Below are positions 269 through 2,035 of a stretch of DNA of 64,000 nt, in pieces. Source of the stretch: Escherichia phage vB_VIPECOMC06; the sequence record PQ416618.1. One strand, written 5' to 3'. Within the stretch, counting starts at the first letter, position 1. Each line of letters starts with the position of its first letter. The translations under genes and the position numbers were made by a program. Under the pieces are notes generated by a model that was not told the DNA's origin, made no database searches, and saw only the letters and a list, made by a program, of their open reading frames with translations.

Positions 269-320
269 TTTATACAGGCCTATTAAGCTAGGCCTTTAAT
301 TTATTTTTGAGGTAATTAAA

Positions 321-470
321 ATGGTAGCATGGATTATTGCATTGCTGTGTTGGTCGTTTTTATTCGTTAACACTTTAGTTACAGGCGAAACAACAGTATT
401 TCAACAGGCTGTGTCACAAGGTACCTTAGCGGTCTTAGCTCTTCTTAACGTATTAAAAGGCGAGCAATGA
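321..470 (+). CDS. Small hydrophobic membrane protein, 49 aa (below ORF-track cutoff); positional candidate for T4 ac
   Basis: ATG at 321 preceded by GAGGT; translation MVAWIIALLCWSFLFVNTLVTGETTVFQQAVSQGTLAVLALLNVLKGEQ; stop overlaps next start (ATGA). Confidence 0.45.
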   Translation: MVAWIIALLCWSFLFVNTLVTGETTVFQQAVSQGTLAVLALLNVLKGEQ

Positions 471-607
471 TTAAGAAAATCTTAGCAGGAGCCTTCGGGC
501 TCTTGTTGTTGCTTACTGTTCTGTACTACGGTGTGATGTTTGGGCTAATCCAAGTAGTGCTTTTCATTTCGGATGTTATAATGGTTATTCGTTCATTAGT
601 ATGGTGA
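467..607 (+). CDS. Small hydrophobic membrane protein, 46 aa (below ORF-track cutoff)
   Basis: ATG overlapping previous stop; translation MIKKILAGAFGLLLLLTVLYYGVMFGLIQVVLFISDVIMVIRSLVW; ends 4 nt before gene 52. Confidence 0.4.
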   Translation: MIKKILAGAFGLLLLLTVLYYGVMFGLIQVVLFISDVIMVIRSLVW

Positions 608-611
608 AAAT

Positions 612-1937
612 ATGCAATTGAATTCTCGTAATCTAAAAAGTATTATTGATAACGAAGCCTTAGCATATGCGATGTACACCGTTGAAAACCGTGCAATCCC
701 AAACATGATTGATGGATTTAAGCCGGTTCAACGTTTTGTGGTTCATCGTGCGTTAGATTTGGCTCGTGGTAATAAAGAAAAATTTCATAAACTTGCGTCA
801 ATTGCAGGCGGTGTTGCAGATTTAGGTTATCATCATGGCGAATCTTCTGCACAAGATGCAGGTGCATTGATGGCTAACACATGGAACAACAACTATCCAC
901 TGTTAGATGGCCAAGGCAACTTTGGTTCTCGAACAGTCCAAAAAGCTGCAGCATCTCGTTATATTTTTGCTCGTGTAAGTAAAAATTTCTATAACGTATA
1001 TAAAGATACTGAATATGCTCCAGCTCATGAAGATAAAGAACACATTCCACCAAAATTCTATCTTCCTATTATTCCGACAGTTCTTTTGAATGGTGTCTCT
1101 GGTATTGCAACCGGTTACGCAACAAATATTCTGCCTCATAGTTTTAAAACAGTCAAAAAGGCTGTATTACAAGCTCTTCAAGGTAAAAATGTCACTAAGC
1201 CAAAAGTTGAATTCCCGGAATTCCGTGGTGAAGTACATGAAGTTGATGGGCGTTATGAGATTCACGGAACATATAAGTTCACATCTCGCACTCAAATGCA
1301 GATAACTGAAATCCCATATAAATTCGACCGTGAAACGTATGTGAGTAAGGTTCTTGACCCGTTGGAAGACAAAGGTCTAATCTCATGGGAAGATGATTGC
1401 GGTGAACACGGCTTTGGGTTTAAGGTGAAGTTCCGTAAAGAGTACTCGCTTCCTGATGATGAAGAGCTACGTCATGAAAAAATCATGAAAGATTTTAGTC
1501 TCATCGAACGTCGTTCACAAAACATCACAGTGATTAATGAAAAGGGTAAATTAGCGGTCTATGATAACGTAGTGGACTTAATCAAAGATTTTGTTGAAGT
1601 CCGTAAGACTTACGTTCAAAAACGTATTGACAACAAAATCCTTGAATCTGAAAAAGCATTTAAACTGGCTTTTGCTAAGGCACACTTCATCAAAAAAGTT
1701 ATTACAGGTGAAATTGTGATTCAGGGCAAGACTCGTAAAGCTTTGACTGAAGAGCTAGCACAAATCGAAATGTACAAAGAACATGTCGATAAACTGGTAG
1801 GCCTTAACATCTTCCATATCACTTCCGACGAAGCACGTAAACTGGCAGAAGAAGCTAAAGCTAAGAAAGAAGAAAATGAGTATTGGAAGTCTACCGATGT
1901 TGTGACAGAGTACACTAAAGACTTGGAGGCACTTTGA
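612..1937 (+). CDS. 52: DNA topoisomerase II medium subunit (gp52)
   Basis: 441 aa, GyrA-like N-terminus (NRAIPNMIDGFKPVQRF); length and sequence match T4 gp52; followed by motA as in T4. Confidence 0.95.
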   Translation: MQLNSRNLKSIIDNEALAYAMYTVENRAIPNMIDGFKPVQRFVVHRALDLARGNKEKFHKLASIAGGVADLGYHHGESSAQDAGALMANTWNNNYPLLDGQGNFGSRTVQKAAASRYIFARVSKNFYNVYKDTEYAPAHEDKEHIPPKFYLPIIPTVLLNGVSGIATGYATNILPHSFKTVKKAVLQALQGKNVTKPKVEFPEFRGEVHEVDGRYEIHGTYKFTSRTQMQITEIPYKFDRETYVSKVLDPLEDKGLISWEDDCGEHGFGFKVKFRKEYSLPDDEELRHEKIMKDFSLIERRSQNITVINEKGKLAVYDNVVDLIKDFVEVRKTYVQKRIDNKILESEKAFKLAFAKAHFIKKVITGEIVIQGKTRKALTEELAQIEMYKEHVDKLVGLNIFHITSDEARKLAEEAKAKKEENEYWKSTDVVTEYTKDLEAL

Positions 1938-2013
1938 GTGCCCTAGCCTTAGGATTTCTCGGTGCAATAGCTGCACTAGTGATTTGGCTGTATCGGTTGG
2001 ACAAACATGATTA

Positions 2014-2035
2014 GGGAGCTTCGGCTCCCTTTTGT
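2014..2035 (+). terminator. Intrinsic terminator hairpin (UUCG tetraloop) after gene 52
   Basis: GGGAGCTTCGGCTCCC followed by TTTTGTG. Confidence 0.65.

Follow-up and report, generated by a model that had tools for sequence, protein, structure and literature searches.

Mosigvirus ac-family and 52.1 genes, probably encoding small membrane proteins, occupy the ndd–gene 52 interval of an RB69-like phage

Introduction

In bacteriophage T4, the genes around gene 52 follow the order ndd, stp, ac, 52.1, 52, motA.1, motA. Escherichia phage vB_VIPECOMC06 (PQ416618.1), of which a stretch of 64,000 nt was analysed here (the window), has two short open reading frames, ORF1 and ORF2, between ndd and gene 52. 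This arrangement raises the questions of whether the two ORFs are genes, to which families they belong, what became of stp, and what their products might do during infection.

Results

The window begins inside ndd, truncating this gene for the nucleoid disruption protein, and the remaining 3' part lies at positions 2–268 on the plus strand (PF06591 Phage_T4_Ndd, E=1e-50, profile positions 74–154 of 154; phrog_1102); the gene bears the name ndd at the equivalent place in the phages AV112 and RB69. Gene 52, which encodes the 441-aa medium subunit of DNA topoisomerase II and is annotated thus in all relatives (tblastn found it in 1990 phage records), extends from 612 to 1937 on the plus strand. 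The initial annotation described the gap between these genes as filled by ORFs of 49 and 46 codons overlapping by ATGA, and our coordinates confirm this description. Specifically, ORF1 (321–470, plus strand, ATG start) encodes 49 aa and ORF2 (467–607, plus strand, ATG start) 46 aa, the ATGA at 467–470 supplying both the stop codon of ORF1 and the start codon of ORF2, and gene 52 starts at 612, 4 nt past the ORF2 stop codon. Reading the sequence for Shine-Dalgarno-like motifs, we found GAGG at 309–312 (plus strand), 8 nt ahead of the ORF1 ATG and invariant in the Mosigvirus alignment, AAGG at 457–460 ahead of ORF2, and GGTGA at 603–607 ahead of gene 52. ORF1 and ORF2 are translationally coupled via the ATGA overlap.

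A megablast search with bases 1–2200 returned 152 phage records with a query coverage of 80% or more. The best match was Escherichia phage AV112, with 98.5% identity over the 2.2-kb query, and by sequence the window is assigned to Mosigvirus, i.e. the RB69-like T-even phages of the Tevenvirinae. The two genes had been taken to be unannotated, but in RB69, the type Mosigvirus, the names 'ac' and 'gp52.1' go back to the first annotation of the genome, and AV112 and many other records annotate both; AV112 labels ORF1 'acridine resistance' and ORF2 'hypothetical protein', and the RefSeq record of phi25-307 has 'hypothetical protein' for each. The ORF1 protein is at least 99% identical in 64 deposited genomes and that of ORF2 is 100% identical in vB_EcoM_G2285, and the frames are present in 293 (ORF1) and 918 (ORF2) phage records. 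The genes ac and 52.1 are, then, not new: both were already listed when the T4 and RB69 genomes were annotated. Annotation of individual records is uneven: 52.1 is uncalled in some GenBank relatives (e.g. EO1, C2-3 and SP18 have 'none'), some records have the overlapping ac feature alone under the 52.1 match, and in Yersinia phage fPS-90 ac is labelled 'sugar ABC transporter permease'.

Because ORFs of this size are frequent by chance here, the ORF listing of this AT-rich DNA containing many spurious ORFs of 40–100 aa, the case for genes rests on comparison and not on the open frames. In codon alignments with eight to nine phages from four genera, pS and pN across genera were 0.59–0.84 and 0.30–0.48 for ORF1, and 0.67–0.81 and 0.17–0.32 for ORF2; between RB69 and the window, ORF1 has four synonymous and zero non-synonymous changes. 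The initial annotation held that the genes would be in doubt if their frames were not conserved in related phages; they are kept in Mosigvirus, Tequatrovirus, Dhakavirus and Jiaodavirus. We also considered that ORF1 and ORF2 might be chance open frames in an intergenic spacer that are not translated, a view to which the abundance of short ORFs in AT-rich sequence and the fact that the T4 homologues went unseen in a proteome lend some weight. It is contradicted by the strong family profile matches described below, by the conservation over four genera with pS far above pN, by the Shine-Dalgarno motifs and coupled starts, and by T4 ac, whose ORF was defined genetically, by mutations within it (Wang and Ripley 1998, as cited in PMC4120765; bioRxiv 10.1101/2025.06.30.662393). 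The profile matches and the excess of pS over pN effectively refute the chance-ORF reading, to which we give next to no credence, and the comparisons identify ORF1 and ORF2 as real genes under purifying selection.

ORF1 was assigned as an ac-family gene ('acridine resistance protein', TGET subtype) based on its match to phrog_2501 (E=2.9e-22, residues 1–48) and the RB69 and AV112 annotations. T4 Ac (gene ac, 51 aa, NP_049877) matches the same profile with E=2.2e-25, making PHROG 2501 a family common to both proteins, and a Pfam search with ORF1 returned no family covering Ac. ORF1 resembles T4 Ac in family, slot, size and two-helix hydrophobic architecture and is 37% identical to it over 35 aa; it is identical to RB69 ac (NP_861957) over the 48 residues of the latter. 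In an alignment of nine Ac-family proteins, W11, T18, V26, Q29 and Q33 are invariant and a VF/I.QA..QG motif is common. The residues that T4 Ac and ORF1 have in common (W, T, VF.QA..QG) include the glycine at which G38R inactivates T4 Ac and abolishes acriflavine sensitivity (bioRxiv 10.1101/2025.06.30.662393); this residue, G34 in ORF1, is present in eight of the nine aligned sequences. ORF1 also lies where an ac gene would be looked for, after ndd and before 52.1, on the same strand and coupled to the 52.1 start, and the ac–52.1 order is the same in T4, RB69, phage 212, JS98 and Jiaodavirus. The initial annotation had pointed to T4 ac and 52.1 as sequences for comparison, and T4 indeed has ac at this place, ORF1 and ORF2 being 37% and 74% identical to their T4 counterparts; what it had missed is that both ORFs are themselves homologues of ac and 52.1.

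The relationship between ORF1 and T4 Ac is not one of strict orthology. T4-type Ac proteins form a tight cluster, mostly 90–100% identical, that is confined to Tequatrovirus-like phages and lies apart from the TGET type, found in Mosigvirus, Dhakavirus and Jiaodavirus, to which ORF1 belongs. Tequatrovirus phiC600P9 (locus L006) has tandem ac-family genes at 1183–1338 and 1349–1507, one TGET-type and one T4-type, and because the two types occur there side by side and ORF1 groups with the TGET type, ORF1 is closer to a paralogue that is absent from T4. The first of the tandem genes is unannotated in the phiC600P9 record, and the T4 Ac query matched at two places in about 50 records. Since ORF1 is of the TGET subtype, an acridine phenotype would follow for it from family membership and not from strict orthology. 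ORF1 could, therefore, be a functionally diverged paralogue of T4 Ac that confers no acridine sensitivity and has another role, e.g. in modulating a different host membrane protein or in superinfection or lysis timing, in which case the 'acridine resistance' label on Mosigvirus genes would be over-transferred. The tandem in phiC600P9 implies non-redundant roles for the two types, and the identity of only 37% over 35 aa and the separate T4-type cluster (at least 90% identity) point the same way; moreover, acridine sensitivity has been demonstrated only for T4 and T2-type Ac, and a literature search for RB69 and acriflavine found an unrelated mention only and no experiment on a TGET-type protein. 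Against divergence stand the placement of both types in one PHROG with strong E-values, the architecture, W/T/VF.QA..QG motif and functionally critical glycine common to both types, and the fact that Mosigvirus, Dhakavirus and Jiaodavirus have no ac-family gene in the slot other than the TGET type. We regard a diverged function as unlikely, yet as the alternative that has to be taken most seriously, and retain an Ac-like role for ORF1 as our working hypothesis.

The junction between ac and 52.1 differs among relatives together with the C-terminus of Ac, and three versions exist within Mosigvirus. The window (455–470) reads ...GAG CAA TGA, with the 4-nt ATGA overlap and the C-terminus KGEQ. A C>T change in RB69 (locus L010, 4272–4317, minus strand) gives TAATG with a 1-nt overlap and the C-terminus KGE, and a 1-nt deletion in phi25-307 (locus L002, 1940–1988) gives an 8-nt overlap like that of T4 and the C-terminus KASND. 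The 'ND*' C-terminus of many genes upstream of 52.1 is set by the 52.1 start, ATGATTAA.

ORF2 was assigned as gene 52.1 (DUF7396). It matches Pfam PF24129 DUF7396 with 78.7 bits (cutoff 27) over residues 1–46 of 46 and phrog_3595 with E=1.7e-22, a profile that T4 gp52.1 matches too. Like ORF2, T4 gp52.1 (NP_049876; PF24129, PHROG 3595) has 46 aa, matches the profile over its full length and lies directly upstream of gene 52; the two proteins are 74% identical, their sole difference being the N-terminal hydrophobic stretch, which is AGAFGLLLLLTV here and GYSLALAALLVA in T4. In an alignment of gp52.1 from eight phages in four genera, 20 of the 46 columns are invariant and the C-terminal half almost so; the invariant residues MIKK, L19-Y-Y-G22, V31-L-F-I-S-D36, S43-L and W46 are all present in ORF2. 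The near-invariant C-terminal half (LYYG...VLFISDVI...SL.W), with its buried Asp, points to a specific intramembrane interaction.

Both proteins had been predicted to be single-pass hydrophobic peptides. The hydrophobicity stands, with GRAVY values of 1.11 (ORF1) and 1.86 (ORF2) and best 19-residue hydropathy windows of 2.19 and 2.52, respectively; the single pass is not established. Single-sequence AlphaFold2 modelled ORF1 (pLDDT 78) as a helix at residues 2–21, a break at T22-G-E24 and a second helix at 25–46, and ORF1 thereby has the architecture of Ac, i.e. 46–52 aa with an N-terminal hydrophobic helix, a short polar break and a second helix; this model agrees with the two-helix ESMFold picture of T4 Ac (bioRxiv 10.1101/2025.06.30.662393). 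ORF2 was modelled as one uninterrupted helix at 2–45 (pLDDT 96), comprising about 40 consecutive, mostly apolar residues with KK at the N-terminus, the invariant YYG in the centre and D36 and R42 in the second half. An apolar helix of 44 residues exceeds the length of one membrane span, and ORF2 could instead form a two-helix hairpin around the invariant YYG.

T4 Stp is a 26-aa activator of the host PrrC anticodon nuclease (PHROG 6763). In T4, Dhakavirus and some other relatives, its gene follows ndd directly; it is absent here, where a 52-nt, ORF-free spacer with a hairpin (269–320) occupies the stp slot instead; because ndd ends at 268 and ORF1 starts at 321, there is no room for stp. The spacer contains no Stp-type 26-aa ORF (MSNFHNEH...) directly after ndd. 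We also considered that stp might have been relocated and rejected this because tblastn searches with T4 and JS98 Stp gave noise only, the best matches, with E of 0.1 in the 64-kb window and 0.2–0.38 in the complete AV112 genome, all falling within unrelated genes. The initial annotation, which had deduced the loss of stp at this site from the gap size, was right, and stp was found neither elsewhere in the window nor in AV112. Separately, Stp-like 25-residue matches of 92–96% identity were found in Raoultella phage RP180 and vB_EcoS-Ro145clw (NC_048181 43056–43130; MG852086 33554–33628), which are non-T4-like phages of about 42–45 kb, and weaker ones in many Salmonella phages of about 37–52 kb; this suggests that stp-like peptides exist outside the Tevenvirinae.

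The spacer hairpin was found in a terminator scan (276–308, plus strand; AGGCCTA-TTAAGC-TAGGCCT with seven pairs and a T-rich tail). Its stem is conserved in four Mosigvirus sequences, and in one IMG/VR locus (L015) it has changes on both arms that are G.U-compatible. Its energy of -11.3 kcal/mol (64-nt context) is not distinguishable from that of shuffled sequences (z = -0.46), which makes 276–295 no more than a possible terminator. Of note, the stem AGGCCT is palindromic, and the loop in RB69 (locus L010) is the reverse complement of that in the window (ATTAAGCT vs AGCTTAAT), i.e. the hairpin is flipped. A promoter in the spacer was rejected: a sigma-70 promoter scan of 269–320 gave none and no MotA box (TGCTT) was seen by eye in 121–320. 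With no promoter detected in the spacer, transcripts that start further upstream probably cover ORF1, ORF2 and gene 52.

For a comparison across T-even phages, we assembled 30 loci that were not de-replicated: the window, eight annotated phages and 22 IMG/VR loci obtained with the 52.1 profile. Of these loci, 22 extend as far as gene 52, and in every one of them the 52.1 stop codon is 4–5 nt ahead of the gene 52 start. Upstream of 52.1, the content is variable: two membrane families (57–61 aa and 53–60 aa), stp, and ac of the TGET or the T4 type all occur. Gene ac itself is absent from 12 of the 30 loci, all of which keep 52.1, and we therefore rejected the idea that Ac and 52.1 form an obligate pair. 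Mosigvirus has the smallest set, with only the hairpin, ac and 52.1 between ndd and gene 52. In other genera, the 57–61 aa family (...FER[IL][CS]K..G.Y[KE]) and the 53–60 aa family (...G[VA]W.P...) populate the ndd–52.1 interval, collectively at 1004–1180 in loci L007 and L009, at 914–1087 and 1463–1624 in L008, and in L021, L026 and L031–L036. In Dhakavirus and other loci, the 53–60 aa family stands in place of ac and likewise overlaps 52.1 by 8 nt; an hhalign probability of 1.2% led us to reject it as a remote Ac homologue. JS98 (locus L008, 1328–1402), L017 and L025 have a 24-codon fragment, LGYSVALSSLLVTLYYGV..., that is like the N-terminal half of 52.1 and lies upstream of the intact gene, apparently a duplication or recombination remnant in Dhakavirus.

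Because 52.1 is the one invariant small gene of the ndd–52 cassette and always ends 4–5 nt before gene 52, we asked whether its product might work with the topoisomerase and not with Ac, in which case it would be a membrane peptide, translated together with gp52, by which the T4-type topoisomerase II is tethered or modulated at the inner membrane. The constant spacing to gene 52 next to variable upstream genes fits this idea, as does the number of records with 52.1 (918), which roughly matches the approximately 1070 with a gp52 at least 60% identical; in addition, topoisomerase genes 39 and 60 also give acridine resistance, according to the preprint's mention of Miller et al. 2003 (bioRxiv 10.1101/2025.06.30.662393). 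However, adjacency is weak evidence by itself, and 52.1 is missing from the phages compared outside the enterobacterial Tevenvirinae: in Aeromonas phage 60AhydR15PP, gene 52 directly follows ndd with no small ORF between them, and the membrane ORFs ahead of gene 52 in Acinetobacter phage AbTZA1 and Krischvirus W115 are unrelated ones. Moreover, T4 remains viable when the segment from gp52.1 to rIIB is deleted (PMC9712115), and ac and 52.1 are therefore dispensable in the laboratory. Overall, we consider a role of gp52.1 with the topoisomerase improbable; the further proposition that gp52.1 is the fixed membrane partner of gp52 instead of an Ac accessory, and thereby a possible link between the acridine phenotype of ac and that of the topoisomerase genes, seems to us more improbable still. 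As a separate observation, the gene 52 product of 60AhydR15PP (locus L038, 595–2238) is extended N-terminally by an acidic segment of about 100 residues, which T-even gp52 lacks.

Downstream of gene 52, a 26-aa hydrophobic ORF with a TTG start (MSALALGFLGAIAALVIWLYRLDKHD; 1934–2014, plus strand) overlaps the gene 52 stop codon at the position of motA.1 in T4. Its PHROG match is weak, and because its sequence does not resemble that of T4 motA.1, a motA.1 homologue after gene 52 was rejected. It is followed by a GC-rich hairpin (2013–2030, AGGGAGCCGAAGCTCCCT) that was scored on the minus strand; the stem is, however, close to a palindrome, and on the plus strand it is followed by TTTTGTGCATTTTT. 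Ahead of motA, at 2056–2083, lies the best-scoring sigma-70-like promoter that the scan gave for this region. The close relative AV117 (locus L003, 2623–2838) differs from the window by an additional ORF of 72 codons inserted between gene 52 and motA, where its megablast match is split into two pieces.

Discussion

As a whole, the observations are best explained by ORF1 and ORF2 being the Mosigvirus ac and 52.1 genes and encoding early membrane proteins, with ORF1 most likely acting as T4 Ac does, and we consider this explanation very likely to be correct. The identity of the genes, their conservation, purifying selection, gene order and the absence of stp come from the comparisons described above. 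For early expression, membrane location and the acridine phenotype, the T4 literature would be the guide. Transcripts of T4 ac and 52.1 are classed as 'early', while the proteins were undetected by proteomics/mass spectrometry (PMC9697503 Table S2). By analogy, we have high confidence that ORF1 and ORF2 would specify early small inner-membrane proteins.

The functions in superinfection or host interaction that had been put forward for the two proteins are speculation, the sole documented phenotype of the family being the acridine sensitivity caused by T4 Ac. Deletion or mutation of ac makes T4 resistant to acriflavine, and Ac expressed in E. coli sensitises the cells to acriflavine (3-log) and ampicillin (bioRxiv 10.1101/2025.06.30.662393). 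The same preprint proposes, as a hypothesis, that Ac, once inserted in the membrane, would block AcrAB-TolC, an idea repeated in PMC13250531, and recounts older work in which Ac raises uptake or permeability. Transferred to the window, these reports suggest the following scenario. ORF1, ORF2 and gene 52 would be carried on one mRNA with ORF1 and ORF2 coupled by ATGA, and the two small products would enter the host inner membrane early in infection. ORF1 would then alter the envelope of the infected cell such that cationic DNA intercalators, e.g. acriflavine, accumulate inside, either because it blocks AcrAB-TolC efflux (the current hypothesis, which is speculative) or because it raises permeability (the older view). 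By either route, the phage would be sensitive to acridines and loss of the gene would appear as 'acridine resistance'. We lean towards ORF1 raising intracellular acridine levels like T4 Ac, and do not go further because of the paralogy; that the AcrAB-TolC route is the true mechanism is a tentative proposition that we would rather doubt than adopt.

Against PDB sequences, neither ORF1 nor ORF2 gave anything meaningful at E≤10, AcrZ included, and kinship with solved structures, including AcrZ-type peptides, was rejected for this reason. E. coli AcrZ is a 49-aa single-helix partner of AcrB. Its likeness to ORF1 and ORF2, in size and membrane-helix nature, is a functional analogy only. If the hypothesis of the preprint is right, AcrZ and Ac would both act on AcrAB-TolC; ORF1 and ORF2 have no sequence similarity to AcrZ, and the predicted effect of Ac would be the opposite one, inhibition.

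As a discovery the two genes count for little, many deposited sequences being the same as, or almost the same as, their proteins. The locus nonetheless documents that an annotation cutoff of 50 codons hides real, conserved phage genes, several GenBank relatives leaving 52.1 uncalled, and that the 'acridine resistance' label on Mosigvirus ORF1 reflects distant family membership and not experiment. If ORF1 confers acriflavine sensitivity, the gene would provide a forward-mutation reporter and counter-selection marker in RB69-like phages, as ac does in T4. For the T-even phages, the ndd–52 interval emerges as a compact, swappable cassette of tiny membrane-protein genes.
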